64,000 nucleotides of DNA from Patescibacteria group bacterium (lineage in GTDB: Bacteria > Patescibacteriota > WWE3 > UBA101185 > UBA10185): contig JAHJEV010000004.1 in assembly GCA_018825365.1 (NCBI GenBank), positions 27,527-91,526 on the forward strand. Reading direction: 5' to 3'. Of this stretch, positions 5,288-56,780 are shown piece by piece. The notes under the pieces were generated by a model, which did no database searches, was not told where the DNA came from, and worked only from the letters and a program-made list of their open reading frames with translations. Every line of letters starts with the position of its first letter. The stretch's first letter is position 1. A program made the translations under genes and the position numbers.

Positions 5288-5653
5288 TTATATCGAATCG
5301 GAAATATGTACCTTACCAAAATAACCTAGTTTAAGAAGTTTCAAATCCTTTGTAATGAAAATGTCACAATTTGCCTCAGACGCAGAGTGTAATTGGACGT
5401 TGTCCTCAAAATCCGATGTGGGTCCCAAAACTGATTTTTTGGCTATAGAGGATGTGTAGTCTACAAAATTAAATGTGTTAAACATTTCTAATAAGCTGCT
5501 ATTGGGAACAAAACGTTTATATATGTATATCCAAATTTCTATGGAAATAGTTGACACAAATAAATCTTCTCCGTCCAACGCTTTTGCCAAGAGTTTATCT
5601 CTGCTTTCCATGAAATCTATATAAATATTTGCGTCAAGAAACACTTTGGCCAT
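5288..5653 (-). CDS. PIN-domain protein (VapC-like toxin)
   Basis: N-terminal 'KVFLDANIYIDF' acidic PIN signature; 121 aa; overlaps the upstream antitoxin-like ORF by 20 nt. Confidence 0.7.
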   Translation of the reverse strand: MAKVFLDANIYIDFMESRDKLLAKALDGEDLFVSTISIEIWIYIYKRFVPNSSLLEMFNTFNFVDYTSSIAKKSVLGPTSDFEDNVQLHSASEANCDIFITKDLKLLKLGYFGKVHISDSI

Positions 5654-5903
5654 ATTTCTCTTTCAAATGTTTTGCATAAATCTTTTCCCTTTCCTCATAT
5701 GTATACTGAACCTTTGAAGGTGGGACAGCTTTATGTAGTTTATTTAGTTGTTTAAGCGAGAATATTTTATTACTTTCTTCATAAGGCCCTACTACCCCTA
5801 TAACCTTCGATCTATGTAGTAGGTATGTGTTTTCCCCTCTTTTCAAAGAATCCCTCAATGCCGAGGATTTCTTCCTTAATTCTGTAGTAGAAATGTAGTT
5901 CAT
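5634..5903 (-). CDS. antitoxin-like protein (Phd/YefM-type) partner of the PIN protein
   Basis: 89 aa; 'ISTTELRKKSSALRDSLKRGENTYLLHRSKVIGVVGPYEE' resembles Phd/YefM antitoxin N-terminus; operon position 5' of the PIN gene. Confidence 0.55.
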   Translation of the reverse strand: MNYISTTELRKKSSALRDSLKRGENTYLLHRSKVIGVVGPYEESNKIFSLKQLNKLHKAVPPSKVQYTYEEREKIYAKHLKEKYGQSVS

Positions 5904-5909
5904 AGTTGG

Positions 5910-5948
5910 ATTTTATGTACATTTAAGTGTACTGTCAAGAGTACACTT
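5910..5948 (-). promoter_or_regulatory. consensus sigma70 promoter (minus strand TTGACA-17-TAAAAT) overlapped by a perfect 10-bp inverted repeat, likely TA-operon operator
   Basis: Plus-strand 'TAAGTGTACT gtcaag AGTACACTTA'; on the minus strand -35 TTGACA (5933-5938), 17-nt spacer, -10 TAAAAT (5910-5915), immediately upstream of the antitoxin start at 5903. Confidence 0.55.
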
Positions 5949-6096
5949 AGATTAATTTCGTAGTATTCATTACCTAAATGACCGGCCCACCGGCTTAGTT
6001 TTTACTATTTCTCCCCTTTCGATCATCTCAACAATAATCCTTTCTTTCAAAGACTAGAGCAATTTAATCGAAAAATGGAACTGAACTTTTTTAATA

Positions 6097-6393
6097 TTAC
6101 TGTCTATACTTTGCCTTGTATTTTTCCGACGCATCTTCTCTCACTCTATCAGCCAGGTAAATCTTAATAAGAGATTGATATGGTATGTCTAGTGCGTTTG
6201 CTTTTTCTTTCACCCTGCGCAAAATATGCTCCGGGATCCTAATAGAAACAGGTTTGGAGGTGGACTTGAGATTTGGAAAACTCGCAGGTTCTAGATCCGA
6301 AGCATTAATGTATTCGGAAAGATTAATCTTTGACCAAAATTCTCTTTCTTGATCTTCATTTTCAAATTTAGGTACTTTTATCTGTTTTTTCAT
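6097..6393 (-). CDS. brnA: BrnA antitoxin (CopG/RHH-like, BrnA family)
   Basis: 98 aa; 'EDQEREFWSKINLSEYINASDLEP...' typical of BrnA; 4-nt overlap with upstream BrnT. Confidence 0.75.
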   Translation of the reverse strand: MKKQIKVPKFENEDQEREFWSKINLSEYINASDLEPASFPNLKSTSKPVSIRIPEHILRRVKEKANALDIPYQSLIKIYLADRVREDASEKYKAKYRQ

Positions 6394-6674
6394 AAGTACA
6401 AACCTTCTTCCTTTTTGTTTAGATCACTCGCGGAAATAACTCTTACTTTGTTATTTCTCAAGGTAAAAACAATAAATAACACCCTATCAAATAATGTTTT
6501 TCCAATTAACAAATAGCGCTCTTCTTTTCCAGAATGAAACATATCTTTTACTACCTTTATCCTGTGACCAAAAAACACCTCCTCAATCTCTTCATTTGCG
6601 ACGTCATGCCCTTTCAGGTTTTTATCTATATTTCCCTTATCCCATTGGAATTCTATTGGTGAAGATAGGATCAC
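6390..6674 (-). CDS. brnT: BrnT toxin (DUF497 ribonuclease toxin)
   Basis: 94 aa; 'FQWDKGNIDKNLKGHDVANEEIEEVF...RVISASDLNKKEEGLY' matches the BrnT/DUF497 pattern (FEWDxxKxxxNxxKHGVxFEEA ... RIISARxAxxxE). Confidence 0.8.
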   Translation of the reverse strand: MILSSPIEFQWDKGNIDKNLKGHDVANEEIEEVFFGHRIKVVKDMFHSGKEERYLLIGKTLFDRVLFIVFTLRNNKVRVISASDLNKKEEGLYL

Positions 6675-6951
6675 GGTTACAATTGTATATACTAGACACT
6701 ACGTTGTCAATAGCAGGGGGTTCAATTTTAATTTGGAGTTTAGAGAAAATAGGTTTCCTAGAAACACAGGAAAATAATGCTAAACACCTAGCCCAGCTAA
6801 TAAACTCCCTCTCGCAATTTATATTTACTTTAGATATAATCCCTGTGCAATGTGGATTTTTACTCTTTAACTCAATATTAAATAGAAACCGTTAGCTCGG
6901 TTTTCTTTCGTATCATTTTTCTTAAAAAGTTAATATATTTGAAAGGATTCT

Positions 6952-8013
6952 ATGAAGGTCATTAGTCGTATAAAAACAATTGAAAATATCTTGAATAAGA
7001 TGAACGCACCACCCTACCGCAAAAGGCAGGTCTATGAGGGTATTTACAGACAACATTTGGAAACATTCAGTGATCTTACATCTGTACCGAAAGATTTAAG
7101 GGCTGCTCTTGCACAAAAACTCGGCGAGAGAGTTTTGTGTCTCACAAGTATTTGTGAAACTCAAGATAATCAAGCAGACAAAGTACTATTTGAAACACAG
7201 GATAAAAACAAAATAGAGGCTGTACTGATGACGTTTAAACCAAACGAGGAACGTACAGAAGATCACCAGTCCCTTTGCGTATCATCCCAATCCGGGTGTG
7301 CTTTGGGCTGCAGGTTTTGTGCCACGGGGGCAGTAGGATTCAAAAAGAACCTTTCGGCAGATGAGATTACAGACCAAGTATTATATTTCTTACAACAAGG
7401 CAAAGTCGTTAACAACGTCTCTTTCATGGGTATGGGCGAGCCTTTTGCCAATCCAAATCTCTTTGACGCGCTAAAGATCTTAACAGATAAGGACAAGCTA
7501 GGGTACGGGCAGCGGCATATCAGTATTTCCACAGTCGGTATAGTCCCCGGAATTCAAAGGCTACAAAAAGAGTTTCCGGGAGTTAGTCTGGCTTTTTCTT
7601 TGCACTCACCTTTTCCAAAGCAAAGACTTCAACTCATGCCTGTAACAAAAATACACCCAATAGATGCTGTCATGAAAGCGTTAAAAGATTTTGTCAACGA
7701 GACAAACAAAAAGGTTTTTATCGCCTATGTTCTTCTTGAAAATGTGAACGATTCTATCGACCACGCAAAGGAGATTGCCCATTTAATTAAAAATCAAGGT
7801 GATAAGCATTATCTGTACCATGTCAACCTGATACGGTTTAATCCGGGTTCTACCTTCGGGTTGTTTAAAAAACCATCTACGGCAAGAGTGAGTACTTTTA
7901 GAAAGGCATTAGACCGCTACGGCATTAAAAACACCCTAAGGCAGGGTTTTGGTGTAAAGATTAATGCAGCCTGTGGACAACTTTACGCTAATTATGAAAG
8001 GGCAGTTAAATGA
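6952..8013 (+). CDS. rlmN: 23S rRNA (adenine2503-C2)-methyltransferase RlmN (radical SAM)
   Basis: 'SSQSGCALGCRFCATG' radical-SAM CxxxCxxC cluster plus RlmN/Cfr family overall pattern; 353 aa. Confidence 0.9.
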   Translation: MKVISRIKTIENILNKMNAPPYRKRQVYEGIYRQHLETFSDLTSVPKDLRAALAQKLGERVLCLTSICETQDNQADKVLFETQDKNKIEAVLMTFKPNEERTEDHQSLCVSSQSGCALGCRFCATGAVGFKKNLSADEITDQVLYFLQQGKVVNNVSFMGMGEPFANPNLFDALKILTDKDKLGYGQRHISISTVGIVPGIQRLQKEFPGVSLAFSLHSPFPKQRLQLMPVTKIHPIDAVMKALKDFVNETNKKVFIAYVLLENVNDSIDHAKEIAHLIKNQGDKHYLYHVNLIRFNPGSTFGLFKKPSTARVSTFRKALDRYGIKNTLRQGFGVKINAACGQLYANYERAVK

Positions 8014-31813: not shown

Positions 31814-31930
31814 AACATTGTGAATTAAAGCACATAGGGAGTTTAAAAGTCAACCAATTTTGACGCTTATGGGCAAAAATAAAGGTCGGATTTAAAGAAA
31901 TATCCGACCTTTTAGATCGCTAACCACTAT

Positions 31931-32221
31931 TTATGGTAACGATCCCTCCTCGAATCTTATAAAAATTCCGCAGTAGTCAGGACCGGCACACGATCTGCTG
32001 GCAGAGCACGTATCTCGAAATTGACATGTTTGCATGGGATCCGTTTCTGCCTCGGGCTTCTCGCATTCAAAATGCACACCAGCAGCGGGGGTCCCAAATA
32101 TTTGTTTCAGTTCCCTCCACAACCCCTCTGACTTGTAAGACTTTTTGCGATTTTCCTTCTTCCCCATTCTGAAAGAATCTCCACTGACACTTCCCTTTTT
32201 CCTACTACCTTTCTTTTTCAT
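31931..32221 (-). CDS. hypothetical small protein, Lys-rich N-terminus and Cys-rich C-terminus (or mis-called GC-rich non-coding segment)
   Basis: 96-aa ORF; locally GC-rich with many inverted repeats; no homology recognised. Confidence 0.3.
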   Translation of the reverse strand: MKKKGSRKKGSVSGDSFRMGKKENRKKSYKSEGLWRELKQIFGTPAAGVHFECEKPEAETDPMQTCQFRDTCSASRSCAGPDYCGIFIRFEEGSLP

Positions 32222-32383
32222 TTTTTCTCTCCTTTTCTAATCAGAATAGTTGGTCCAAACATAGTAACACCAAAACGTTGTCAAATCAACTTATTAAAAC
32301 TTTTCCCTATCAAAAAATACAAAAATAAGTTAATATGCTAAAATCTTAAAGCAGGGGCTACCTTGATAATTAAGCGTAGATTG

Positions 32384-32878: not shown

Positions 32879-32978
32879 TTATTTGTATCTTTGTTTGCTT
32901 TTTTTAAATATCAAAAAATCCGAGTAGTTAATTGAGGTATTTAAATTACTTTAACCCAGCATCCAAATATCCCATAGC

Positions 32979-33007
32979 TTGACAATGAAAATTAGAAAAG
33001 ATATAAT
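32979..33007 (+). promoter_or_regulatory. perfect-consensus sigma70 promoter TTGACA-17-TATAAT
   Basis: -35 TTGACA at 32979-32984, 17-nt spacer, -10 TATAAT at 33002-33007; no ORF downstream on this strand. Confidence 0.6.
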
Positions 33008-33013
33008 CCTGGT

Positions 33014-33219
33014 ACCTTGAATAGGTAGCTCGCTTCTGCATTACCAAGTTTGTAAGGGTTAAATGGGGTGATTGAACCAGGCTTTAGTAGCTTTAGTGGT
33101 GTATTTACTAGTAGTGATTTAGTGTCAACCTACCCCATCCCCACGGCAATGGCAATGTATGAGCTACCTTAAAAGAATTCGACCGTGTACATATCTGCTC
33201 TTTGTATACGGTCTTTTTT
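33014..33219 (+). ncRNA. candidate ~205-nt small non-coding RNA (consensus promoter to intrinsic terminator), family unknown
   Basis: Bounded by the promoter above and the terminator GACCGTGTACA...TGTATACGGTC + T6 (33181-33219); no ORF of 60 aa or more; internal pairing CCTGGT/ACCAGG. Confidence 0.4.
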
Positions 33220-33323: not shown

Positions 33324-33686
33324 TTAAGAAGATTCTCCGTTCTCCTCTTCCTCTTCATTCCCGTCTTTTTTCTTTTTTGTAAGCTTGATTTTCGAGCCCC
33401 CAAACATTTGACCGATTGATAGCCCAATGGGAATCATACGAACTATCAACTCGAATCTCAGATGCTGGAAGTCCTTCGTGTACAAACCAGCCAACCAAGA
33501 AGGGCTTACAGAAAAGCTACAAAAAAAGACAAACACCAAGATGAGGATGGCCCATCTTAGTCTGATATCGGGGTTTAATAATTTCCCGATAATAATGTAC
33601 CCCAAAAGAAAGGATGCTACCAAAACCAGCAAACCCCCTAAGGATACCGCAAGAGCCCCTTTCCCAATAAGTAAGAATGCGTCCAT
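33324..33686 (-). CDS. small integral membrane protein (120 aa, ~3-4 TM helices, acidic C-terminal tail)
   Basis: Hydrophobic segments; ORF. Confidence 0.5.
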   Translation of the reverse strand: MDAFLLIGKGALAVSLGGLLVLVASFLLGYIIIGKLLNPDIRLRWAILILVFVFFCSFSVSPSWLAGLYTKDFQHLRFELIVRMIPIGLSIGQMFGGSKIKLTKKKKDGNEEEEENGESS

Positions 33687-33767
33687 CTTTTCTCTCCTTT
33701 ATTTTATAGGATATAGCAATTGTAAGCCAAAACAGCCTTTTTGTCGAAACTATGGGACTATGCTAGT

Positions 33768-33803
33768 AATTGAAAAAAAGAAAAACCTCGCAATTGCGAG
33801 GTT
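33768..33803 (-). terminator. intrinsic terminator/attenuator hairpin (AACCTCGC-aatt-GCGAGGTT + T-rich tract on minus strand) inside a ~370-nt structured leader
   Basis: Perfect 8-bp palindrome at 33784-33803, followed on the minus strand by TTTTTCTTTTTTT; upstream minus-strand GNRA hairpin CGAAAC-GAAA-GTTTCG and other helices. Confidence 0.5.
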
Positions 33804-34054
33804 ATAATATCTCCCCGATGTGTCGATCCACCAAGATCGGATCTCCGTTTGAGTTTAGATGGGTTCCAAGAATCGAAACTTTCGTTTCGAGAACTTTAGA
33901 TCCCGCTCGAAGATCTAACGATGGAAGATACTACACGACCTTCGGTTTACCCGAGCACACCAGGTTTGCTCGTTTGAGCATTAATAAAATCTTAGCAACA
34001 TCAAGGACATTTGTCAATCTTGCCGTCTTTAGTATTTGCCTTTATAAAGGGAGA

Positions 34055-44181: not shown

Positions 44182-47100
44182 ATGAGCCTGCCTGCCCAAG
44201 AAAACGCACAAAGAAATAATGACACAAAGTATGACTTCCAAAGATTTGGAAGTTTAAAAGTTTCTCAAGCCGCAAAAATTTTAGGTATATCCCCTTCCTC
44301 ACTTAGACGCTTCGAAAAAGAAGAAAGAATTACCTCGGAAAGAGCCCCCGGAAATAACTATAGAACCTACAGATTGGATCTAGTAAACAGGCTAAAAGCC
44401 GAGCTACAAAACGATGGTACCAACAAACAGCTTCTGGTCAAGAGGAAAAAACTTAGAAAAACTCAGAAATACTCCCCAGAAAAAATAAATACAGGTCTAA
44501 TAAAAACCAAACCAGGGATAATACCTTCCCCAGCCCCAGTATTTAACATGGATATACCTTCGGCGCCATACCATGTCAAACCTTATGTACCAGTATCCCC
44601 CTCGCTAGAAAAACTAGACGAATCGATTAAGACAAAGGGTGACAAAGAGGAAAACTTGAACTTACCGGAGGTAGTTCCTTCATATGAAAAAATAGTCACA
44701 TACAAACCAGCAGTAGCCAAATTAAGTTTAGGCAGAGTTTTCGCCTTGATATCTACTCTCGTACTAGTATCCACAATCCTTATTTTCCCCGTGAACTTTT
44801 CAAAAGTTCTTTCAGATTTTAGATCTAAAGTTCAAAACGGACTTGTCAACGCTAAGAATCTGTCAAATGTTCTTAGTACTTTAAACTTTGGATCAAAAAA
44901 GCTAGCTGAAAAGAAATCAACTGCCCCAAGTGAACTTTTGGCAAATGTACTTGCCGCAAGTGCCCGAGTTTCAAATTACGTTTACAACATCAATATTCCA
45001 GTATTTTTCAAAAAACCAGCAACATTTGAAGACACCCTAACGGCAGAGCAGCTGGCAACTTTCAACGCCGCTATTACCACAACCAATGTAACTTTCAAAG
45101 GCACCGGTTTAATAAATAACCTTTTAGGTATTGATGTAGTAACAAAAACCACACTCGAAAGAGACTTGGATATTGACGGACAGATAACAAGCACAGGAAT
45201 GGGAGACACGGTAATAAGCAAGGGAATTATAACAGGACCGATGCTCAATTCAAACATAACATATTCCGGTAAATTTAATTTTTCAGGAACAATTGCACTA
45301 AAAGGAACAACAATTACATCAACAGCAGCCGAGCTTAATCAACTGGCAGGACTTTCATATGAAAGCGGCGGCATATTTTACGGAGACGGGACCGGATTTT
45401 ATCAGGATACTTCTTATCTGTTTTGGGACAGCACAAACAAAAATCTAGGTATAGGAACTAGTTCTCCCACTGCAACTCTAGAAATAATAAGCTCGGGAAC
45501 AGGTACCTCTACGTCAACTTTATGGACTAAGAATTCTACTGGAACAACAGGTTTATTTGTACAAAATAGTGGGAATGTGGGTGTCGGAACTACAGCCCCG
45601 GCCACAGCTTTGGAAATCGGTGGAAGCGGAAATCTAAGAATAGGAGGATTAACTGCTTTATCCGGTGTATATACAGATGCTGACAAAACCCTGGTCTCTA
45701 CCCCACCTACTTCAGGAACTTTAGGCTATTGGCAAAGAAACGGAACTTATGTTTCTCCAGCGACAATCACTGACAATGTAGGTATTGGTACCACCGCTCC
45801 TTCAGCACTTCTTGAAGTAAACGGTACCTCATGGCTTCGAGGTGGAACAGCACCTACTTCAGGTTTGTTCGTAAATTCAAGTGGCAACGTCGGCATCGGA
45901 ACAACAAACCCGGGAGCTAAACTGGACGTACGGGGAGGATTGAATACTGGAACCAATGGAACAGAATTTACAGTTTCTGACACTGGTATAGTTACTGCAG
46001 CCACCTCATTTCTAGCTCCAACTTTTGATACTGCTACCGGAGTGGCTATGAATATCGGAACTGCCACTCAAACTGCCCTCACCCTTGGTAGGGCGGGAGC
46101 AACCACAACCATTAACGGTTCCGGCTTAACGGTTGGGCCAACCGCTTGGACCGCAACTCCAACTATCTCCGGACTGATTACCGCTACCTCCGGCTTAACT
46201 GCCAATGGAGCTTTAACCGCTAACAGCACTTTCACGCTTGGAGATGATGGAGACCTCGGATCGATTGATACTTCTGACTGGAATATCACAACAACTGGAG
46301 CAATGACCGGAATTTCAGGAATTGCTAATGATGGTGCCTACACTCAATCAGGAACATCGGCTAACACTTTTACTGGAACCTCAACTTTTTCCAATGCCAC
46401 CTACTCCGCCTTTTTTACCGGTGGTAACGTAGGTATCGGCACGACAGAGCCAGGCAGCAAGTTGGAAGTTGCGGGAACCTTTACCGTTTCCGGCAGCAAC
46501 CTAACCACTCTCGGAGGCAATCTGACAGTTACCGGTACTACTTGGACAGCCACCCCGACAATTTCCGGTTTAGTAACCATGACCTCAGGTTTTGACAGCA
46601 ACGCCGCCTCAACCGTCTCTTCCTTAACCATAGATGCCAACACTGGAAATGCTCTAACTATTTCCGGAACCGGTTTTACCACTGACATTACCCTCCAAAA
46701 CGGGGAAACAATTGACAATGACACTGACGGCACAATCTTACTCACCGCTCCCACCACTAAAACTTCAGGCAATCTGTATGCGGGAACATCAGGGACAGGA
46801 ACAATCACCTCAGGTTTAATTAACGGTCAAACTATATCCTCCGCCGCTAATTTCACCGGCACCGGAATTTTTGCTTCAACTCTAACTGCTTCCAATGGCT
46901 TAACTTTAACTACCGGAGCTTTGAATTTGACATCAACTTCCGGCACAGTTAACCTAGCAACGACTTTTAACCAAGTGGGCGCTACAACCATCAACACTTC
47001 AGGCACTGCCAACACTACTATCGGCAATACCGCAGGCGGGACAATCACAATCGGTGCCGCCTCCGGAAGCGATCTTGCCTTAAATGACGCCCAATGGTCA

Positions 47101-50100
47101 ATTACCGGGGCCGGAGCGGCCAACTTTACTGGTTTAACTTCATCAGGAACAATTACCTTTTCCGGCTTGACCGCTTCAAGAGGAGTATTTACCGCTACCG
47201 GAGGGCAATTAGCTACTTCGGCTACTTCCCAATACCTAATTGACTCTCTTTCCGACGAAACAGGGTCGGGAGCTTTGGTCTTTAGTAACAGCCCGGCAAT
47301 TACCACCCCGACCATCACCACTTCAGCTACCGTGCCTTTATTAATTGGTGGTACAGCTGCCAACAGCACTTTGACTTTGAGATCCACTTCGGGTACGGGC
47401 ATAACCGGAGCTGACATTCTTTTCCAGACCGGTAACAACGGGGCTACTGAAGCCATGAGAATTTTGAACTCGGGCAATGTGGGTATTGGGACGACCAATC
47501 CACAGTATGCTCTTGAAGTAGGAGGAAGCGGGAATGTGAGAATCGGAGGACTTAGTGCCTCAATGGGAGTATATACCGATGCAAATAAGCAGCTAACTTC
47601 CACTCCTCCTACCTCCGGGGGTTTAGGATACTGGACAAGAAGTGGTACTACTCTTTGGCCTACCGCAAATACGGATAATCTAACCACTCTTGGCAACATT
47701 GGCATAGGCACCACCTCCCCCACCTCTTCTCTTCATCTTAATGCGTCTGCCCCCAGTGGCATTATATTTAATCTTGCCTATGGTGCATCCACAGTAATTG
47801 ACAACGATCTTACCGGCGCCAAGTTTAACCTTGATGACGGCACAGTCGTTGCAACCAACCAGAATATCACAGGCTTGGAGGTAAAGTTGCCAACCGTCAC
47901 CAACACCCATACAACAGGCACCAAAACGCTCAAAGGATTTTATGTAAACTTCGGAACCGGATCAGGCTTAAACCAAACCGGCGTCGGCGGCACCACCACC
48001 TACAATGCCCTTCACGTGGATCTTCCCGCCCTTACCCAAACGGCCGGAACGTTAAACATTAATGGTTTGTATGTGAACTCTCCGTCCAGTATCACAACCG
48101 GCGGTACGGCAAGCGGTCTTTATATAAACTCCACAGGAGTTAATGCAGGCGCGCTGTACGGGGTGAATGTAAGTAATATAACGGCAGGCGCGGGAACCGA
48201 ACGGGCGATTAACATAGGGAGTGGCTGGGACAGCGTTTTAGCAGTAAACGGTACCGTGATAATAAGCGGCTCGGGAGTAACCCAAACAGCCGGCGGCGGC
48301 ACCGGTTTTTCCACGTATACCAAAGGAGATGTCCTATACTCGGACGCGGCCAACTCGCTTGCTAAACTTGGCATTGGCACTGTCAATCAAGTTCTCTCCG
48401 TTACCGCAGGAGGAGTGCCGGGTTGGGGAACTATGGACGGTACAAGCTGTGTCAACTGTCTTATTAGCAACCCCACCGGAGATCAAATCATTGCTCCTAC
48501 CGGACAGGGTACGACAGGACTAGTTGTTCGCCAGACCTCAACCTCCTCTCCTACCGATGATATTTTTGCTGTTACCAATAGCGCCGGTGATAATAAATAT
48601 TTTTATGTTGACTACGCGGGCGTTGTCAATATCCCAAGTATCGGCTCCTCCAGCGGAGACCAGCTAACTATTGAACCAGGAACAGACAAATACGCCCTTA
48701 AACTTCTGGGCACCAATGTGGCGGCAAACAGCCTTCAGCTTATTGACAGCTACAACACTTCGGGCACCATTTTTGATCTTGACTACCCAGCGGCAAGAAC
48801 GCTTTCAGGCGCACTTGTTGGTATGGATATTGACCTTTCCACCAATCTAACAGTAACAAACCAAAGCGTAACCGCTCAAAAAATTACTTTACCCACTTTT
48901 ACCAATACAAATACCACAGGTACCAAGTCGTATTTGGGTATGCAAATTGCTCCCCCGGGAGCTGGCGGTGTTAACCAAAATGGTATTGGTGGAACAAGCG
49001 AGTACATTTTGGCGGATCTTACCATGCCTGCTCTTACCCAAACAGCAGGAACGCTTAATGCCTACGGGGTCAAAATCATAACACCTTCGTCCATCACCAC
49101 CGGCGGTACTGCTTATGGGGTTAATATAAACGCAAGCGGAGTCGGAGCAGGCACGCTTTACGGGATGAATGTAAGTAATATAGCGGCAGGCGCGGGAACC
49201 GAACGGGCGATAAACATCGGCACAGGCTGGGATTATGGTATCTACTCGGAAACCACAGGCAACTCCTACTTTGCAGGCAGTGTTGGCATCGGAACAACAA
49301 ATCCCACCGCAGCTCTTGATGTTGCTGGAGGAATAAAAGCAACTACATTTAATGGCAATATTATCTCCACAGGTACTGGAACTTTAACACTGGGGGCTTC
49401 AAAAACTTTAACTGTTAATGATTCCACTGTTTTGAATACTAATACCGTTACCTTCGGAGGAACAGAAATATTAACTTTAACCGCAGGAAAGAATGTAACC
49501 TTTGCTGATTCCTTTACCACCTCGGGATCAAATTCTCTCACACTAACAACTACCGGGTCAACCAATACAACCCTGCCAACCACAGGAACTCTTGCTACCT
49601 TAGCCGGAATAGAAACATTCAGCAGCAAAACATTTAGCGGAAATACATACTTTCCTGGATCTGGTATCTGGGATGCAGGAGGCAACATCGGCATCGGGAC
49701 GACAGCTCCGAAGAACAAGCTAGATGTATTTGGTGCTATGGCTATAGGGTCATACGCAGGTGTGAATACGGCACCGAGCAACGGGATGATAATATCTGGC
49801 AACGTCGGCATCGGGACGACGGGACCGGGGGCGACCCTGCACGTTCAAAAAGGTGCTGGTGTAACGGCGGTATCAGACAGCAACGCAGTGTTTCAACTCA
49901 CATCTGATGGTAATGCATCAAATATGTGGTTTAACATTAAGACAGGAGCCAATGGTGGAACCAATGGGACATTTGGATTTGCTGAAGCTGGGACTATTAA
50001 GGGCGGAATATTATGGGACGTGGCAAACGCCTCATTTAATTTATCTAGTGACGTAAACACTACAGCGACTTCAAGGCAAGTGATTATTAAAGCAGGCAAC

Positions 50101-53100
50101 GTCGGCATCGGGACGACGGGTCCCGTGGCCAATTTACACATTGTTGGCTCAACCTTGTTTGGCTCCTTAGCCGTGGCCGACAAGGTCACTGGCGGAAACA
50201 TCGGTACCGCCGCTGCCACCGTTGATATATATACCAGCTTCAATCTGTCCCAGGCCACCGCGGGCCAAACCATTACCCTGCCCGATCCAACTAATACCAC
50301 GGCCGGCAGATTAGTCTATCTTTCCAATACCGGTTCGGCCACCTTTACTTTTTACAACTCCACGGTTAAAGTCGGCGATACCACCGCGGCCATTTGGGAC
50401 AGTGACTCCTGGAACCTGGCCGGCGGCGGCGGTTTGGCTCAAGGCACGGTTGATAATGCTACTTTAAGATGGAACAACTCAACCACTCAGTGGGTGGAAA
50501 ATACCAGTATTCTTACCGCGTTAAATCCAACAGCCGTAGGTTCTTATGGGTTGTCAGTTGGCAATTCTGGCGCTGTTGCCGGAACCGGATATGGCATTTA
50601 CACCACAAAGACCGGGGGCTCAACTACTAATGTAGCTTTGTATGCATCGGCATCCGGTGGCGCTGCAAATTATGCTGCCATTTTTGATTCAGGAAATGTC
50701 GGCATCGGGACAACTGCTCCCACATATAAACTGGATACCCAACTGGCAAGTAATGGAATAATTGCAAGATTTTCAGCAACAGATGCAAGTTTACTTATAG
50801 GAGCAGATGCTAGTGGTGGATATATACAACCAGGAACAGTAGATAAAACTACAATATATCAATCAAACGGCACATCAGCAGTAGTAACTGTAGACGCTAA
50901 CAAAGTAGGTATAGGAACGACTGCTCCATCAACAAAATTAGATGTGAATGGCACGATTACCAGCCAGACCGGAGCTGTAAACTCCAATGTGGCTGACTCT
51001 TCAACCGCCATCGCCTTTTTACTGGCATCCAATAATACTTTATCCACCCAGGGCGCCAAACTCCTTTCTTTGAAAAACGCCTCAACGGAAAAGTTTTACA
51101 TTGACAAAGACGGCAATCTCTATACGGCCGGCACCATTCTGGCCGGCAATGGCACCGGCATACTGATGATTAACAAATCCGGCGGCACGGTCGCTAAGCG
51201 CAGTTTAGTCGTCATTGACATCACCACCAACTCCGCCTTTGCCACTACCACCACCGCCTACGCCAAATCCAGTTTTGGCGTGATTACCGGCGTCGGGCTT
51301 GGAGTAGCCTATGACGCCGATGGCGACGGCGCGTGCGACGCCGAAGATGTCTGCATGGTGGCGGTTGGCGGCGAAGTGGAAGTTCTTCTGACCAACGCGT
51401 CTACCGCCGTTAAAGGCGACTATATTTATACCTCGGCCACGGCCGGTTCGGGCGTGTCCAGCGCCAAGCAGTTTGACGGCCTTATCGGCATCGTCAGCAA
51501 CACGGCCGGCTCTGCTTCCGGCTATGGCAAAATGATTTTTAAAGTCCAGCCCCAGGTCTCCGGCTCGCAGTTTTTAACTAAAGAAGACACAGCTTTGGCT
51601 AATGGCGGTTATGTGGAGATAGTCCACAATCAGAGCACTAATGATGTGGTGACCAATGGGTGGGTGTACAACACAACCACCAGTAAATGGGAAATAGTTG
51701 GTGATAGTGGGGATGCAATTGGTGGAACAGTAACATATAAAGATGGATATACCATCCATACATTTACCAGTAGCGGAACCTTCACGCCAGTTAGTGCTGG
51801 AAATGTTGAAGTTTATGCTTGGGGTGGTGGCGCAGGTGGTGGGTATAACGCCGGTGCCGGAGGTGGTGGAGGAGCAGCTAATGGTACAGTAACAGTTGCG
51901 GCATCTTCTTATGTTGTTACTGTTGGTGGCGGTGGATTATCTAGGGCACCGGATGCTGGTCCTGGACCAGCAGTTGTTGGTGGAGGTGGTTTAGCAGGTA
52001 ATCTTGGTTATGGTGGTCAAGGCGGAGGTTTATCTGGAATTTTTATAGGATCTTCTTCTCAAGTCAATGCTCGCTTAATGGCTGGTGGGGGCGGTGGTGG
52101 TGCTTACGAAGGTGCTAATGGCGGTGCTGGAGGCGGCACTAATGGCGTTGCTGGTGGCAACGGTTTAGATGCTGGTGGTGGTGGAGGAACACAATCTGCT
52201 GGTGGCACATCTGTTTCCTCTACCGGTTCTGCGCTACAGGGAGGTTCTTCTGGTGCTCAAGGTGATGGTGGCGGTAGCGGTGGTGGAGGTGGTGGTTATT
52301 GGGGTGGAGGAGCTGGTAGTAATACCAATCCTGGTTCTGCTGGTGGTGGCGGTGCAGGATTTTATAACCCAACTTATGCTTCCTCTGTAACATTAACTGC
52401 AGGTTCTGGAACAACACCTGGTGATTCAGGTAATTCTTTAAGAGGTTCTGCTGGTAATGGAGGTGCGGCTGGTAATAATGCAGGTACAGCCGGCATTGTC
52501 ATTGTTAGATATCTGACGAATTCGTTGAGCGCTTTCAAAATCACCCAGCAGGATACCAATACGGTTCGGCTTTATAATTATTCCGGCGCGACGCAATATG
52601 TCAGGTTAAATGTTATTCCTTCCGGCGGCGGCGGTTCGCCGGGCGGCGGCGCCGGGCTCTACACCAATAACAACGCCTCCGTTGCCAACGGCTCCTACAT
52701 CGACGTGGCGCACAACCAGAACACCGCCGACCTGGTAAGCAACGGGTGGATTTACAATACAGCTACTAGCAAATGGGAACAGATTGACAAAGATAGTAGT
52801 GATGCCACTGGCGGAACAATAACATATAGCGGTGGATATACCATTCATACTTTTACAAGTAGCGGAACATTCACACCACCAAATAATGGAAATGTTGAAT
52901 ATCTTGTGGTTGGAGGAGGAGGAGGAGGTCATACGGGAGGTGGTGGGGCGGGTGGATATTTGACTGGAACAGATTCATTATCCGCAACCTCTTACAATGT
53001 TATAGTTGGAGCAACAGTGGGCGCATATACAACTGGAAACAATAGTTCATTCAATGGCAAAATAGCTTCTGGCGGAGGTCTTGGAGGAAATGTAGGTGAA

Positions 53101-56076
53101 GCAGGGGGAGATGGAGGTTCGGGTGGTGGTGCGGGTGCGGGTGGTGGTGTGTATGCACATGGTCACGCAACTGGTACTCCGAGTAGCCAAGGTCATGATG
53201 GGGGCATAAACTATAATAGCTCTCCTTATCCTGCTGGTGGTGGCGGTGGCGCAGATACAGTAGGTTCAGATGGAACGTCTAATGGAGGTGGAAATGGGGG
53301 CGCAGGACTAACATCAAGTATTAGTGGAAGTTCAGTAGGTTATGCAGGTGGGGGTGGGGGTTATAGTCAAGATACAAAACCTCCAGGAACTGCGTCCCAT
53401 GGAGGAGGAGCAGGAGTAGGGCAAACGGGCACTCCCAATGCTGGCACACCTAATACTGGCGGAGGCGGCGGCGGCGGACAGAATGGTGGTGCAGGTGGTT
53501 CCGGCATTGTCATTGTCAGATATTTAACCAATTCTTTAAGTGCTTTCAAAATCACCCAGCTCGATACCAACACGGTACGGCTCTACAACTACTCCGGTAC
53601 TACTCAAAACTTACGGCTTGATGTCATTACCGGAGGATTGGGCCGAAACGCCGGCACCGTGTCTTTGGCGCCGGCTGCCGCCGACGTTGACAGCCAGGAT
53701 AACTCCAACAGCATCTGGATCAACAAAACCGGAGCCGGGGGCTTGCTGCTCAAGCTCCAATCTGCGGCTGCGGATGTTCTCACTTTGGCCAAGAGCGGCC
53801 TGATGACCTTGGCCGGCAGTTTCGTTCCCGCTACCAACGATACCTATGATTTGGGTTCGGACGCCTTGAGATGGCAGTCTGCCTACATCGGGCCCGGGAC
53901 AGTGCACATTGGCACCTCCACCGCTGATGAGTACACTATGTCATATGACACAACTAACAACCGCTTGGGTTTCAATGTCAACGGTTCGGGCGATGCGGAA
54001 ATCGTCTTTGATTCCTCCGGCAACGTCGGCATCGGGACGACGGGACCAGAATCTAAACTACATGTTATGTTTAATAGCGCAGGTACAATCACAGGTTTTT
54101 CCGACGCATTAATTGTTGAAAACAACGCGAATGCTTATTTGAACCTCATTGGTTCAACTTCTGGAATAAAGGCGATTACTTTTGGAGACCCAACTGCCGG
54201 TGTGGTAGATGGTCAAATCACCTACAATGCCCTCGCTACTGACATGCTTGACTTTCGTGTTGCTGGTAATTCTGTAAAGATGGTGATTGACTCTTCCGGC
54301 AACGTCGGCATCGGGACGACGACGCCTGCAGCTAGAACACACATAGTCAATACTACAGCTACCGCACTAAGGTTGGATGTAAATGATGCATTTTCTTATG
54401 CGGAGTTTTATACTGGTGCAACATATCGTGGAAATATAACATATCAGGCGGCAAGTACTGCTTTGCGATTGACTGCTGGAACAGCACAGAACTTACTCTT
54501 AACTGCTGCGGATAGTAATGATAAAGGGATATTTATAAAAACAGACGGCAATGTCGGCATCGGTACAACAGCTCCGAAGAACAAGCTAGATGTATTTGGT
54601 GCTATGGCTATAGGGTCATACGCAGGTGTGAATACGGCACCGAGCAACGGGATGATAATATCTGGCAACGTCGGCATCGGGACGACGGGGCCGGGGGGCA
54701 AGTTAAGCATTTATGATACGTCAGCCGGTGCTAACGATAGGGTACAGATAGTCAGCGATCTAAGTTCGAGCGTGGACCAGTTGGTACTCCATCATTATGG
54801 GACGGCAGGAACTCAGCTTGCGTCATTTTGGAGAGGCAGGGGCACTTTCTCTTCACCAACAGCTTTATCGAATGGTGATGCAATCGGTCAATTTAATTTC
54901 GTAGGATATGACACAAGTAACACGGCTCAGACAGGGGCAGGATTCGGGGCAGTAGTAGATGCGGCTCCAGGAGCTGGAAGCGTTCCTATTGCAATAAGAT
55001 TTTTAACAGGTACCACAGGAGGTGGGACGGAACGGGTCAGAATTGATAGTACCGGCAACGTCGGCATCGGGACGACGGGGCCAGTGAGCTCGCTAGAAAT
55101 AAAAGGTCCGAACACTGTAAATACTCCGCGCTTAACGCTCAACCAACTTTATAACGCAGGAGCGTCGGCGTGGGGTATTGATTTCACTCGCACCTACGAC
55201 ACCGGTGGTGACGGACAAAACGCGGGGTACATTCGTATTGGCCGTGCCGGGGGAACCTCAAATTCGGGTATGTTTTTTGGGCTTGGTGACCAAGGTACAG
55301 TCGCAGATAGAATGACTATTCTTCCAAGCGGCAACGTCGGCATCGGGACGACAGGTCCAGGGTATACATTAACAGTTGCAGGTACTGCCTGGGTTACAAG
55401 CGGCGCCTGGTCTGGTTCGGATGTTAGATGGAAAGAAAATATTCAGCCTATAGCAGGAGCCTTGGACAAAGTACTGCAACTCTCCGGAGTTTTCTATAAC
55501 TGGAGAAAAGACGAGTTTCCAGAAAATAAATTTGATGACAAAACTCACTTGGGGTTAATTGCTCAGGATGTAGAAAAAATTGTTCCCGAACTGGTAACCA
55601 CAGGACCAGACGGCTATAAAGGTCTTGATTATAATGGATTAGCGCCTCTTTTAATTGGGGCCGTACAGGAACAGCAGGGGCAAATCTCGCTGCTGTCAGG
55701 ACAGCTGGTAAGCTTATCAAATATCGTCCGTGTTGAAGGCTCGTGCGTTACCGGTGACACATTGCTTCCCATCCGCCGCCGACGCAAAAGTCTAAGTGGT
55801 CTGGAATCCGAGGACGACAATGGGTTATTTGATTACCTGTTGATCCGTATCGATGAAATACTACCTGGCGATGAAGTCTCGTCCTTAAATGAGTTTACAG
55901 GCTCTCTAGAATGGCATAAAATAAATGCCTCGATGGATATGGATATTAAGGAAGTTTTTGAGCTTACAACCAAATCAGGAAAAGTAATCAGGACAACAGC
56001 CAAGCATCCTTACTTAACTTTGTTGGAAGATAAATTGGAAGGTAACCCTGTAGTTAGTAAAGAAGGAATAAAATAA
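44182..56076 (+). CDS. giant (3964 aa) cell-surface protein: N-terminal HTH, single TM, tail-fibre-like 'GNVGIGTTxP' repeat array, tandem Gly-rich modules, peptidase-S74 intramolecular chaperone domain, C-terminal split-intein N-fragment
   Basis: Single uninterrupted ORF. HTH 'LKVSQAAKILGISPSSLRRFEKEERI' (aa 22-50). TM 'RVFALISTLVLVSTILIFPV' (aa ~184-204). Many 'SGNVGIGTT(A/N/G)P..KL(D/E)V' repeats. S74 motif 'SDVRWKENIQPIAGALDKVLQLSGVFYNWRKDE...LIAQDVEKIVPELV'. Final 110 aa 'CVTGDTLL...VIRTTAKHPYLT...' are intein blocks A and B. Confidence 0.85.
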   Translation: MSLPAQENAQRNNDTKYDFQRFGSLKVSQAAKILGISPSSLRRFEKEERITSERAPGNNYRTYRLDLVNRLKAELQNDGTNKQLLVKRKKLRKTQKYSPEKINTGLIKTKPGIIPSPAPVFNMDIPSAPYHVKPYVPVSPSLEKLDESIKTKGDKEENLNLPEVVPSYEKIVTYKPAVAKLSLGRVFALISTLVLVSTILIFPVNFSKVLSDFRSKVQNGLVNAKNLSNVLSTLNFGSKKLAEKKSTAPSELLANVLAASARVSNYVYNINIPVFFKKPATFEDTLTAEQLATFNAAITTTNVTFKGTGLINNLLGIDVVTKTTLERDLDIDGQITSTGMGDTVISKGIITGPMLNSNITYSGKFNFSGTIALKGTTITSTAAELNQLAGLSYESGGIFYGDGTGFYQDTSYLFWDSTNKNLGIGTSSPTATLEIISSGTGTSTSTLWTKNSTGTTGLFVQNSGNVGVGTTAPATALEIGGSGNLRIGGLTALSGVYTDADKTLVSTPPTSGTLGYWQRNGTYVSPATITDNVGIGTTAPSALLEVNGTSWLRGGTAPTSGLFVNSSGNVGIGTTNPGAKLDVRGGLNTGTNGTEFTVSDTGIVTAATSFLAPTFDTATGVAMNIGTATQTALTLGRAGATTTINGSGLTVGPTAWTATPTISGLITATSGLTANGALTANSTFTLGDDGDLGSIDTSDWNITTTGAMTGISGIANDGAYTQSGTSANTFTGTSTFSNATYSAFFTGGNVGIGTTEPGSKLEVAGTFTVSGSNLTTLGGNLTVTGTTWTATPTISGLVTMTSGFDSNAASTVSSLTIDANTGNALTISGTGFTTDITLQNGETIDNDTDGTILLTAPTTKTSGNLYAGTSGTGTITSGLINGQTISSAANFTGTGIFASTLTASNGLTLTTGALNLTSTSGTVNLATTFNQVGATTINTSGTANTTIGNTAGGTITIGAASGSDLALNDAQWSITGAGAANFTGLTSSGTITFSGLTASRGVFTATGGQLATSATSQYLIDSLSDETGSGALVFSNSPAITTPTITTSATVPLLIGGTAANSTLTLRSTSGTGITGADILFQTGNNGATEAMRILNSGNVGIGTTNPQYALEVGGSGNVRIGGLSASMGVYTDANKQLTSTPPTSGGLGYWTRSGTTLWPTANTDNLTTLGNIGIGTTSPTSSLHLNASAPSGIIFNLAYGASTVIDNDLTGAKFNLDDGTVVATNQNITGLEVKLPTVTNTHTTGTKTLKGFYVNFGTGSGLNQTGVGGTTTYNALHVDLPALTQTAGTLNINGLYVNSPSSITTGGTASGLYINSTGVNAGALYGVNVSNITAGAGTERAINIGSGWDSVLAVNGTVIISGSGVTQTAGGGTGFSTYTKGDVLYSDAANSLAKLGIGTVNQVLSVTAGGVPGWGTMDGTSCVNCLISNPTGDQIIAPTGQGTTGLVVRQTSTSSPTDDIFAVTNSAGDNKYFYVDYAGVVNIPSIGSSSGDQLTIEPGTDKYALKLLGTNVAANSLQLIDSYNTSGTIFDLDYPAARTLSGALVGMDIDLSTNLTVTNQSVTAQKITLPTFTNTNTTGTKSYLGMQIAPPGAGGVNQNGIGGTSEYILADLTMPALTQTAGTLNAYGVKIITPSSITTGGTAYGVNINASGVGAGTLYGMNVSNIAAGAGTERAINIGTGWDYGIYSETTGNSYFAGSVGIGTTNPTAALDVAGGIKATTFNGNIISTGTGTLTLGASKTLTVNDSTVLNTNTVTFGGTEILTLTAGKNVTFADSFTTSGSNSLTLTTTGSTNTTLPTTGTLATLAGIETFSSKTFSGNTYFPGSGIWDAGGNIGIGTTAPKNKLDVFGAMAIGSYAGVNTAPSNGMIISGNVGIGTTGPGATLHVQKGAGVTAVSDSNAVFQLTSDGNASNMWFNIKTGANGGTNGTFGFAEAGTIKGGILWDVANASFNLSSDVNTTATSRQVIIKAGNVGIGTTGPVANLHIVGSTLFGSLAVADKVTGGNIGTAAATVDIYTSFNLSQATAGQTITLPDPTNTTAGRLVYLSNTGSATFTFYNSTVKVGDTTAAIWDSDSWNLAGGGGLAQGTVDNATLRWNNSTTQWVENTSILTALNPTAVGSYGLSVGNSGAVAGTGYGIYTTKTGGSTTNVALYASASGGAANYAAIFDSGNVGIGTTAPTYKLDTQLASNGIIARFSATDASLLIGADASGGYIQPGTVDKTTIYQSNGTSAVVTVDANKVGIGTTAPSTKLDVNGTITSQTGAVNSNVADSSTAIAFLLASNNTLSTQGAKLLSLKNASTEKFYIDKDGNLYTAGTILAGNGTGILMINKSGGTVAKRSLVVIDITTNSAFATTTTAYAKSSFGVITGVGLGVAYDADGDGACDAEDVCMVAVGGEVEVLLTNASTAVKGDYIYTSATAGSGVSSAKQFDGLIGIVSNTAGSASGYGKMIFKVQPQVSGSQFLTKEDTALANGGYVEIVHNQSTNDVVTNGWVYNTTTSKWEIVGDSGDAIGGTVTYKDGYTIHTFTSSGTFTPVSAGNVEVYAWGGGAGGGYNAGAGGGGGAANGTVTVAASSYVVTVGGGGLSRAPDAGPGPAVVGGGGLAGNLGYGGQGGGLSGIFIGSSSQVNARLMAGGGGGGAYEGANGGAGGGTNGVAGGNGLDAGGGGGTQSAGGTSVSSTGSALQGGSSGAQGDGGGSGGGGGGYWGGGAGSNTNPGSAGGGGAGFYNPTYASSVTLTAGSGTTPGDSGNSLRGSAGNGGAAGNNAGTAGIVIVRYLTNSLSAFKITQQDTNTVRLYNYSGATQYVRLNVIPSGGGGSPGGGAGLYTNNNASVANGSYIDVAHNQNTADLVSNGWIYNTATSKWEQIDKDSSDATGGTITYSGGYTIHTFTSSGTFTPPNNGNVEYLVVGGGGGGHTGGGGAGGYLTGTDSLSATSYNVIVGATVGAYTTGNNSSFNGKIASGGGLGGNVGEAGGDGGSGGGAGAGGGVYAHGHATGTPSSQGHDGGINYNSSPYPAGGGGGADTVGSDGTSNGGGNGGAGLTSSISGSSVGYAGGGGGYSQDTKPPGTASHGGGAGVGQTGTPNAGTPNTGGGGGGGQNGGAGGSGIVIVRYLTNSLSAFKITQLDTNTVRLYNYSGTTQNLRLDVITGGLGRNAGTVSLAPAAADVDSQDNSNSIWINKTGAGGLLLKLQSAAADVLTLAKSGLMTLAGSFVPATNDTYDLGSDALRWQSAYIGPGTVHIGTSTADEYTMSYDTTNNRLGFNVNGSGDAEIVFDSSGNVGIGTTGPESKLHVMFNSAGTITGFSDALIVENNANAYLNLIGSTSGIKAITFGDPTAGVVDGQITYNALATDMLDFRVAGNSVKMVIDSSGNVGIGTTTPAARTHIVNTTATALRLDVNDAFSYAEFYTGATYRGNITYQAASTALRLTAGTAQNLLLTAADSNDKGIFIKTDGNVGIGTTAPKNKLDVFGAMAIGSYAGVNTAPSNGMIISGNVGIGTTGPGGKLSIYDTSAGANDRVQIVSDLSSSVDQLVLHHYGTAGTQLASFWRGRGTFSSPTALSNGDAIGQFNFVGYDTSNTAQTGAGFGAVVDAAPGAGSVPIAIRFLTGTTGGGTERVRIDSTGNVGIGTTGPVSSLEIKGPNTVNTPRLTLNQLYNAGASAWGIDFTRTYDTGGDGQNAGYIRIGRAGGTSNSGMFFGLGDQGTVADRMTILPSGNVGIGTTGPGYTLTVAGTAWVTSGAWSGSDVRWKENIQPIAGALDKVLQLSGVFYNWRKDEFPENKFDDKTHLGLIAQDVEKIVPELVTTGPDGYKGLDYNGLAPLLIGAVQEQQGQISLLSGQLVSLSNIVRVEGSCVTGDTLLPIRRRRKSLSGLESEDDNGLFDYLLIRIDEILPGDEVSSLNEFTGSLEWHKINASMDMDIKEVFELTTKSGKVIRTTAKHPYLTLLEDKLEGNPVVSKEGIK
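49705..49824 (+). repeat. ~120-nt perfect intragenic direct repeat, copy 1 (copy 2 at 54571-54690)
   Basis: Identical stretch 'gctccgaagaacaagctagatgtatttggtgctatggctatagggtcatacgcaggtgtgaatacggcaccgagcaacgggatgataatatctggcaacgtcggcatcgggacgacggg' at both sites. Confidence 0.8.
54571..54690 (+). repeat. ~120-nt perfect intragenic direct repeat, copy 2
   Basis: See copy 1; 4.87 kb apart in the same reading frame, encoding 'APKNKLDVFGAMAIGSYAGVNTAPSNGMIISGNVGIGTTGPG'. Confidence 0.8.
55417..55743 (+). other. peptidase S74 / intramolecular chaperone auto-processing domain (sub-feature of the giant CDS)
   Basis: 'SDVRWKENI...FYNWRKDEFPENKFDDKTHLGLIAQDVEKIVPELV' matches the tail-spike/endosialidase C-terminal chaperone domain (SDxRxK Ser-Lys dyad region). 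Confidence 0.7.
55744..56073 (+). other. split-intein N-terminal fragment (Int-N; Hint blocks A and B), DnaE-split-intein-like
   Basis: Block A 'CVTGDTLL' at the extein/intein junction (…VEGS|C); block B 'GKVIRTTAKHPYLT', close to the cyanobacterial DnaE Int-N block B 'GSVIRATSDHRFLT' as recalled; ORF stops 20 aa later, as in natural Int-N. Confidence 0.75.
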
Positions 56077-56201
56077 ATGAGTAAATTTTTAAACAGTTTT
56101 TTAACTAAATATCTCACGATTACAAGAGGAAGTGCCAAAATTTCCCAAACTAGTGAGATTGGGACCTCGCCAATCCGTGAGATGGGGGAGACTAAAAATC
56201 T

Positions 56202-56780
56202 ATGAAAATTAACCAAAATATGAAAAAATTCCAAAAAACTCTGGAATTAAAAGGCAAAACGGCTGTCCTCATTGATTGGGCTAACGTTCACGGATGGGCA
56301 GAATTGGGTCACTCTGAAGTTAATCTAAAAAAGTTGTTTAAATACTTAAGAGGGTACAAAAAGATTAAAGCAATAAATCTATATTTCGGTAAGGATACTC
56401 ATCCAAAATCAAAAAAGTTTTTAGGTGAAGCGAAGAAAATAGGTTTTAAGGTAATCACAAAACCAGTTAAATATATCAAGGTGGCTGTATTCCAAAATAA
56501 ACCAATTTTCCGACGAAAGTGCGACTTTGATATGGAAATTTGTATTGATATTCACAAACATTTAAGCCAAAATTATGATAGTTTCATTTTCTTTTCTGGC
56601 GATGGGGACTTTGAGCCTCTTTATAGACTATTAATCGAAAGACATAAACAGGTTATTGTAATATATGGACAAGGCCATCTGGGAAGGGAGATTTACTCAA
56701 TAAAACAGGGGTTATATAAACTCGATATTAATAAGTTGGGGTCAGTAAAAAATGACCCCCCGGTTTCCCGGAGGGCGTGA
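56202..56780 (+). CDS. NYN-domain (LabA/YacP-like) protein
   Basis: 'KTAVLIDWANVHG' N-terminal acidic motif and 'FFSGDGDFEPL' NYN signature; 192 aa. Confidence 0.7.
   Translation: MKINQNMKKFQKTLELKGKTAVLIDWANVHGWAELGHSEVNLKKLFKYLRGYKKIKAINLYFGKDTHPKSKKFLGEAKKIGFKVITKPVKYIKVAVFQNKPIFRRKCDFDMEICIDIHKHLSQNYDSFIFFSGDGDFEPLYRLLIERHKQVIVIYGQGHLGREIYSIKQGLYKLDINKLGSVKNDPPVSRRA

Follow-up and report, generated by a model that had tools for sequence, protein, structure and literature searches.

A candidate clade-specific small RNA gene with conserved ends and a variable core beside tRNA-Thr in WWE3-like Patescibacteria

The segment downstream of mscL and its two flanking tRNA-Thr genes can be read, with moderate confidence, as a stand-alone, clade-specific gene for an RNA of ~206 nt, which would act in trans via a clamp and hairpin module, i.e. 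the helix P1 near its ends and the 3' terminator hairpin. Within the window, by which we mean the whole analysed stretch of 64 kb, the initial annotation had described this segment as an unannotated, possibly lineage-specific small RNA (sRNA), and this description has gained support: promoter, start, clamp and terminator are kept in five homologues, the compensatory and G-U changes fit the + strand only, and neither an Rfam family nor a conserved ORF was found. At the sequence level the candidate has what generally characterizes a stand-alone sRNA gene, namely its own promoter, an intrinsic terminator, no conserved ORF and preservation in relatives. Judged from these features, it is a new family of an ordinary, known kind, the stand-alone bacterial sRNA, and very probably not a housekeeping RNA. 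The parts of the locus that are discussed in the following are:

32970..32977 (+): TCCCATAG element directly 5' of the sRNA -35 box; CCCATAGCTTGACA is invariant across the sRNA homologues
32979..33007 (+): sigma-70-type promoter TTGACA-17-TATAAT (-35 box 32979-32984, -10 box 33002-33007), the sole 12/12 match in the window, with hexamers invariant in the homologues
33014..33023 (+): putative +1 purine and single-stranded 5' leader ACCUUGAAUA (RCCUUGUA in relatives), with the start predicted from sequence
33024..33031 (+): 5' strand of P1, GGUAGCUC, partner 33161-33168
33032..33160 (+): variable core inside P1, mean pairwise identity 0.48
33161..33168 (+): 3' strand of P1, GAGCUACC, partner 33024-33031
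33169..33180 (+): A-rich single-stranded linker UUAAAAGAAUUC (GUAAAACAAUUC in relatives), within the 57-nt 3' block of identity 0.95
33181..33219 (+): intrinsic terminator with 11-bp stem, 11-nt loop UAUCUGCUCUU and T6; arms GACCGTGTACA (33181-33191) and TGTATACGGTC (33203-33213), T6 at 33214-33219
33324..33686 (-): convergent gene, coding for a membrane protein of 120 aa that is predicted to have three helices
33719..33757 (-): membrane-gene promoter including its TCCCATAG element (33757-33750)
33766-33981 (-): folD-leader RNA, with promoter TTGACA-17-TAAGAT at 34017-33989 and terminator at 33803-33784

The promoter had been called a textbook TTGACA-17-TATAAT sequence that is rare in the window, and this is exact: it represents the only 12/12 match on both strands of the 64 kb, where 0.03 such matches are expected, and 3 of 100 dinucleotide shuffles of the window yield any 12/12 promoter. 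Housekeeping-sigma RNA polymerase would start at the purine ~7 nt past the -10 box of this perfect promoter and would stop at the strong hairpin followed by the U-tract, giving an RNA of ~195-220 nt among the variants and a predicted transcript of 206 nt (33014 to ~33219) in the window. The hairpin plus T6 at the end of the segment, likewise noticed before, possesses an 11-bp stem of 10 Watson-Crick pairs and one G-U pair with a dG of -16.5 kcal/mol and a z of -7.1 against shuffles; it was missed by a consensus terminator scan because the scan accepts loops of at most 8 nt and the loop here has 11 nt. The segment had also been regarded as free of ORFs and as part of a tRNA-Thr/mscL neighbourhood, both of which hold true in the sense that just short unconserved ORFs overlap it and that tRNA-Thr(TGT), mscL and tRNA-Thr(GGT) are its upstream neighbours. 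The local gene order is fmt, rpmB (L28), tRNA-Thr(TGT), mscL, tRNA-Thr(GGT), the sRNA candidate, the convergent 120-aa membrane-protein gene, an M50 peptidase gene, secE and nusG. The relatives of mscL and NusG belong to Patescibacteria without exception, the nearest named ones to WWE3.

Homologues of the sRNA comprise five distinct sequences and one truncated copy, which come from at least five different samples and all belong to close relatives of this WWE3-like Patescibacteria genome. They are always situated between tRNA-Thr(GGT) and the convergent membrane-protein gene, and the sRNA adjoins that gene in every contig that extends past the gene's end. The copies in L082 and L083 are a strain variant with 99% identity to the window sRNA, and four clearly different copies were found in L084, L081, L085 and L087. 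The truncated copy in L141 came from a profile search with the 120-aa protein, which added L141 and L142 only; here the 120-aa neighbour shares just 45% identity and the hairpin is cut by the end of the contig, but the last bases of the contig, CTTTGTACACGGTCTTTTT, correspond exactly to the 3' arm of the terminator, which is thus kept at this distance. Using mscL as anchor in 185,579 species genomes, 80 CPR loci were obtained, none of which contained the sRNA according to nhmmer, blastn and covariance-model searches, and none of the 49 loci obtained with NusG as anchor in metagenomes contained it either. The covariance model R1 of the sRNA detected no additional copy in 860 kb of window and loci, the exact hairpin pattern had 0 matches in JGI metagenomes, the relaxed pattern 0 matches in viral contigs, and blastn of the sRNA against phages gave no match. 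Moreover, the sRNA is missing at the syntenic site in L139, L142, L088, L091 and L094, the NusG proteins of which are 67-78% identical. In L139 (NusG 78% identical) a lipoprotein-like gene follows tRNA-Thr(GGT) instead of the sRNA, in L142 the tRNA runs directly into the membrane-gene terminator, and in L088, L091 and L094 the tRNA adjoins folD or the folD leader. Hence, the sRNA represents a presence/absence feature of ~400 bp in a variable spot beside the tRNA within a narrow clade. On the loci compared, the candidate is restricted to one narrow clade of WWE3-like CPR bacteria.

Conservation is very unevenly distributed along the RNA. Mean pairwise identity amounts to 0.86 in the leader and 5' strand of P1 (first 18 columns), 0.48 in the core and 0.95 in the last 57 columns, with the flanking genes of L081 being 86% identical in DNA to the window as a scale. 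The untranscribed spacer between the two convergent terminators shows an identity of 0.49, close to that of the core; hence, the core changes at about the local neutral rate and the ends are strongly constrained. At the 5' side, CCCATAGCTTGACA and ATATAAT are invariant across the five variants, a purine stands 7 nt past the -10 box in all five, CCUUG is invariant, and the conserved stretch after the putative +1 reads RCCUUG..UAGGUAGCUC. The near-invariant 3' stretch is GUAUGAGCUACC-GUAAAACAAUUC-GACCGUGUACA-UAUCUGCUCUU-UGUACACGGUC-UUUU, in which the terminator stem and loop are unchanged except for one G-C to G-U replacement and one loop base. Since selection is seen on the promoter, the leader with P1, the linker and the whole 3' hairpin including its loop, these can be regarded as the working parts. 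Terminator hairpins are well conserved at the neighbouring folD-leader RNA too, so conservation of the terminator alone is weaker evidence for a special role of the sRNA. Another feature of the ends is that the 5' end of the relatives' sRNA, ACCUUGUA..UAGCUC, forms an imperfect direct repeat of the terminator 5' arm plus loop, ACCGUGUA..CUGCUC (33014-33031 versus 33182-33200 in the window), which is weaker in the window copy and may reflect an internal duplication or an alternative pairing.

The two conserved ends are connected by P1, in which nt 11-18 of the RNA pair with the sequence just 5' of the 3' hairpin and thereby enclose the core of 120-150 nt. In all copies GGUAGCUC pairs with GAGCUACC over 8 bp; six of the eight pairs are invariant and 95.8% of the alignment cells are paired, and together with the 11-bp terminator helix the values lie at 96-100%. 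P1 and the terminator yield no covariation signal, because their pairs do not vary. The core of the four different relatives can be folded into the hairpins P2 and P3 followed by an arm of P5-P6-P7. Covariation among relatives, named in the initial annotation as a check of the RNA, was found here in modest form: eight P2-P7 pairs changed on both sides, the covariation score was matched by 1 of 500 shuffles, and slid controls scored far lower. For example, CUUGG/CCAAG in P2 is changed to CCUAG/CUAGG, and CCUGU/ACAGG in P3 to UCUGU/ACAGA in L087. The signal stays modest because only five distinct full-length sequences underlie the whole comparison. As for the strand, P3 and the terminator of the window copy contain G-U pairs that would become A-C mismatches on the opposite strand; together with the promoter and the T-run, these pairs assign the RNA to the + strand. 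Folding alone cannot make this assignment, because the 212-nt stretch forms a stable structure in either orientation (z of -3.9 on + and -4.3 on -). The best fold of the window copy is a rod of -67.1 kcal/mol versus -35.2 kcal/mol when it is forced into the architecture of the relatives, and in two of the five variants the core alone shows no unusual stability (z from -0.2 to -2.8).

Based on these features, the product would most likely be a trans-acting regulatory RNA that is recognized via its clamp and hairpin module, the partner being a protein or another RNA that touches the loop or the leader, while the core would mainly serve as a structured spacer. In this regard a comparison with RsaE/RoxS-type sRNAs of Firmicutes is useful, which are stand-alone, trans-acting and do not depend on Hfq. 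The candidate resembles them in its housekeeping-sigma promoter, its intrinsic terminator, a length in the range of 100-250 nt, few short conserved elements, an approximately genus-level range and an intergenic position beside tRNA genes. However, it lacks a conserved C-rich or other obvious seed and the target scan found none; instead, its conserved elements are the double-stranded P1 and the terminator stem plus loop, with an unconstrained core. In the scan of 51 translation-start regions, the conserved sRNA segments scored no better than shuffles. Separately from the conserved segments, the C-rich stretch CCCCAUCCCCACGG (33126-33148) can pair at -22 kcal/mol with 56176-56192, the Shine-Dalgarno region of a gene for a NYN-domain protein (56202-56780), a score that is reached by 3 of 100 shuffles with four segments tested. 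The C-rich stretch is not conserved in the relatives, hence, this pairing is a lead only. Another class with a comparable layout are the Y RNAs and YrlA, which possess a conserved helix of 5'- and 3'-proximal sequences, a variable interior and a U-run at the end. The sRNA shares the end helix, the variable interior and the U-run; however, it has no Rfam match to them and no Ro/Rsr gene nearby, P1 has no sequence relationship to the Ro-binding helix, and an extra invariant hairpin follows P1.

Among the competing explanations, the one that survives best, although we consider it unlikely, is that the transcription unit matters and its RNA product does not: the strong promoter and efficient terminator would serve a purpose at the level of DNA or transcription, for example insulating the membrane gene, or the unit would be the orphaned leader of a lost gene, with the RNA body as a neutral by-product. 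The core evolving at the rate of untranscribed spacer would be in line with such a role, as would the gain and loss of genes in the tRNA-Thr region between relatives and the neighbouring folD leader, which lost its gene in the window yet persists. It does not explain, however, why the two P1 strands, 130-150 nt apart, are conserved and complementary, or why the hairpin loop and linker are conserved although they are unneeded for termination alone. Moreover, none of the five lineages has a + strand gene downstream.

The convergent gene deserves special attention with regard to a possible function of the sRNA. Its product belongs to a family with only nine members among 5.8 billion proteins (seven relatives before the profile search) and without a Pfam or PHROG family. 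The protein is small and hydrophobic with a charged tail, and the structure model behind its three predicted helices is of low confidence (pLDDT 53) and was too poor for a fold search. One family member has a weak match to FolT (E 0.002), which lies far below the family cut-off. The membrane gene is preceded by TCGACA-17-TACAAT in the window and by TTGACA-17-TATAAT in L081, and TCCCATAG also occurs there, two bases before the -35 box compared with one base at the sRNA. This second TCCCATAG is kept in L081, L085, L086, L087 and L141 and occurs as CCCTATAG in L084 and L142. In 814 kb of fetched loci, CCATAG-N1-2-TTGACA was found only at the promoters of the sRNA and the membrane gene. The element at the membrane gene is the older one, because it is present in L142, which has no sRNA. 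The element shared by both promoters is possibly a binding site for a common regulator or the sign of a duplicated promoter. The sharing of TCCCATAG suggests a plausible co-regulation, in which sRNA and membrane gene would probably be turned on together through this element.

A different observation concerns the sequence of the membrane gene itself. Comparing 33324-33686 of the window with 4001-4363 of L082 revealed 129 differences within ~370 nt exactly across this gene, with flanks that are ~99-100% identical. This hypervariability points to allelic replacement or diversifying selection. The two alleles encode proteins with 63% amino-acid identity, and the sRNAs of the same two strains are 99% identical.

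Given this neighbourhood, we also considered whether sRNA and hypervariable membrane gene form one accessory two-gene module at the variable spot by tRNA-Thr, which would be driven by the shared TCCCATAG and in which a protein partner, perhaps the membrane protein itself, would bind the RNA by its invariant clamp and hairpin. This idea is speculative and of low probability, but, if true, it would add a new kind of RNA-protein system to episymbiotic CPR, with a role in surface variation, in defence or in the interaction with the host.

Lower in probability again is the more explicit proposal that the sRNA acts as partner of the membrane protein in a toxin-antitoxin-like or abortive-infection-like manner and restrains its expression or activity. 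The type I locus par/Fst offers a precedent, in which the antitoxin RNA II is convergent with a small membrane-protein gene. Our candidate is arranged likewise, its conserved terminator stem-loop might be a possible contact point, the two genes are always adjacent and convergent with a common TCCCATAG promoter element, and the protein is small and hydrophobic with a charged tail and encoded by a gene that is hypervariable between strains. However, unlike RNA II, the sRNA has a terminator that is separate from that of the membrane gene, the two transcripts do not overlap and the spacer measures 38-60 nt. Furthermore, the longest complementary run between sRNA and membrane mRNA is 7-9 nt as in shuffles, so antisense control of the membrane gene by the sRNA is not plausible. 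The neighbour protein with its 120 aa and three predicted helices differs from the par/Fst situation in that it also occurs without the sRNA, as in L142, and the sRNA stays 99% identical between strains in which the protein alleles differ by 37%.

Similarly improbable is a conditional terminator, according to which the RNA would sense a signal and read-through would produce an antisense RNA to the convergent membrane gene. Antisense RNAs under riboswitch control have precedents in Listeria and Clostridium, the strong promoter is aimed at the 3' end of the convergent gene, and the loop plus 3' arm can in principle pair with the upstream sequence GUAUGAGC. However, this alternative pairing reaches -4.9 to -6.4 kcal/mol compared with -18.9 kcal/mol of the terminator fold and is therefore ~13 kcal/mol weaker. 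In addition, the core as would-be sensor is the least conserved part, which is the opposite of riboswitch behaviour, and no riboswitch family matches. The stand-alone, trans-acting sRNA remains our preferred reading.

An assignment to known RNA families was not obtained. Searching Rfam over the whole window returned the two tRNA-Thr genes and nothing at the sRNA, and even at a permissive E<=10 no family was assigned to the sRNA in the window or in relatives, in agreement with the former impression that it resembles no recognizable family. The best score in all sRNA copies came from the trpB motif RF04312 with 23.2, 27.8, 25.0 and 22.8 bits versus a gathering score of 59, and this sub-threshold match rests on the A/U-rich linker plus terminator (GACCG.GUA...UAC.CGGU, then the U-run). 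In Firmicutes and Fusobacteria, the trpB ncRNA motif is located in 5' UTRs (PMC11109978). In contrast to this motif, the sRNA is not followed by a downstream gene, the next gene being convergent in all loci, and the first hairpin of the motif is unmatched.

From its neighbourhood, the initial annotation had considered a housekeeping RNA, and a divergent 6S RNA, SRP RNA or part of RNase P RNA or tmRNA would be compatible with the length of ~200 nt, with the strength of the promoter and with the rod that the window copy forms at minimum energy, features that recall 6S. Nevertheless, this suggestion has to be given up as very improbable. No covariance model matched even at E<=10, the rod is not conserved, the relatives are multibranched and the core is unconstrained. 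Furthermore, the RNA is absent at the syntenic site of relatives with 67-78% NusG identity (L139, L142, L088, L091, L094), which makes 6S, SRP or any other housekeeping RNA very unlikely. Specifically for 6S RNA (RF00013 and related), neither the window copy nor three relatives gave a match at the gathering score or at E<=10; despite the likeness in size, promoter strength and rod fold there is no conserved central bubble, the relatives show P1, two hairpins and a branched arm instead, and for the window sequence the energies of the two architectures lie 32 kcal/mol apart. The SRP RNA models (RF00169, RF01854) did not match either, and the sRNA has no conserved hairpin with a GNRA tetraloop.

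A coding function of the transcript is equally hard to reconcile with the comparison. No ORF is conserved among the five variants and their core lengths differ by non-multiples of three. A frame of 24-29 codons through the hairpin was rejected, because its AUG is lost in L085 and the frame shifts after the T-run. The mini-ORF MYELP (AUG-UAU-GAG-CUA-CCN-UAA) just before the terminator could be imagined as a stalling leader peptide, since the stop and the YELP codons occur in all five variants and three of four substitutions in 18 nt are synonymous third-position changes. However, a Shine-Dalgarno sequence is missing upstream in every variant, the AUG is AAG in L081 (where the frame is extended upstream), which leaves the full frame in four copies, the ORF lies inside the P1 helix, and three sites in one phase are expected by chance in about 1 of 9 cases, such that there is hardly any likelihood for such a peptide.

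The least credible proposal regards the sRNA as what is left of a mobile-element or retroelement RNA, i.e. a retron-like msr-msd or a MITE with the inverted repeats GGTAGCTC and GAGCTACC around a variable interior: the retron ncRNA topology of a closing duplex, two small hairpins and a long arm does resemble the relatives' sRNA, and in relatives GTA stands on either side of the 8-bp inverted repeats, but none of the loci has a gene for a reverse transcriptase or transposase within 8 kb, the flanks carry no annotated RT domain, the sRNA is single-copy in the window and all loci, the terminator follows at once and then the convergent gene, and the ends are under selection at a fixed orthologous position. 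Several other identities were tried and rejected. A pseudogene remnant was dismissed after blastx displayed no similarity to local proteins, a paralogue of the folD-leader RNA after no significant similarity to the sRNA was found, and a repeat or uptake-sequence element because the hairpin arms occur in one copy only; for att repeats of the tRNA 3' end, the window showed a weak match that is not kept in relatives.

The comparative data gathered for the sRNA also exposed a second, widespread structured RNA, the folD-leader RNA. Its covariance model R2 detected the RNA in 12 further loci with 180-250 bits in the closer ones and 28-54 bits in L095, L096 and L104. It folds into a long rod with two conserved internal loops, and 29 of 60 pairs show compensatory changes, which was reached by 0 of 500 shuffles; an Rfam family for it was not found. 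In seven lineages folD starts 10-35 nt past the terminator of this RNA. In the window folD is lost and the RNA precedes the membrane gene instead. It resembles a riboswitch-type leader for a gene of one-carbon metabolism and would be a candidate for a new class. The folD-leader RNA is far more widely conserved among WWE3-like CPR than the sRNA, and it is the more interesting object and the better candidate for a new class of regulatory RNAs.

Furthermore, a full-text literature search found no description of regulatory RNAs in CPR/Patescibacteria. As CPR genomes are very small, any noncoding gene that they have kept is likely to be important. In this respect the sRNA represents a concrete CPR candidate with defined, though predicted, ends, a conserved module and a probably co-regulated neighbour. 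Its wider significance is modest, because the family is narrow and found at the level of one clade.

Finally, some observations were made on the remaining window. The gap of 560 nt between rpmB (L28) and tRNA-Thr (31820-32380) includes a GC-rich stretch (0.48 versus ~0.37) and a 96-aa ORF on the - strand without Pfam family; gene callers place an ORF there in relatives too, but protein and DNA are unconserved versus L139. A strong hairpin at 31881-31912 resembles a terminator. Between tRNA-Thr(TGT) and mscL, L082 harbours an insertion of ~1.95 kb (5224-7173, corresponding to the position between 32459/32460 of the window), which encodes a 500-aa RNase_H_2 (PF13482) protein and a 68-aa protein. 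CRISPR or other arrays were not found in the window. The positions 44182-56076 (+) are occupied by one ORF of 3964 aa with internal near-repeats, including identical 50-nt stretches near 49741 and 54607. Giant surface proteins are common in CPR genomes, and the product of this ORF is probably one of them.
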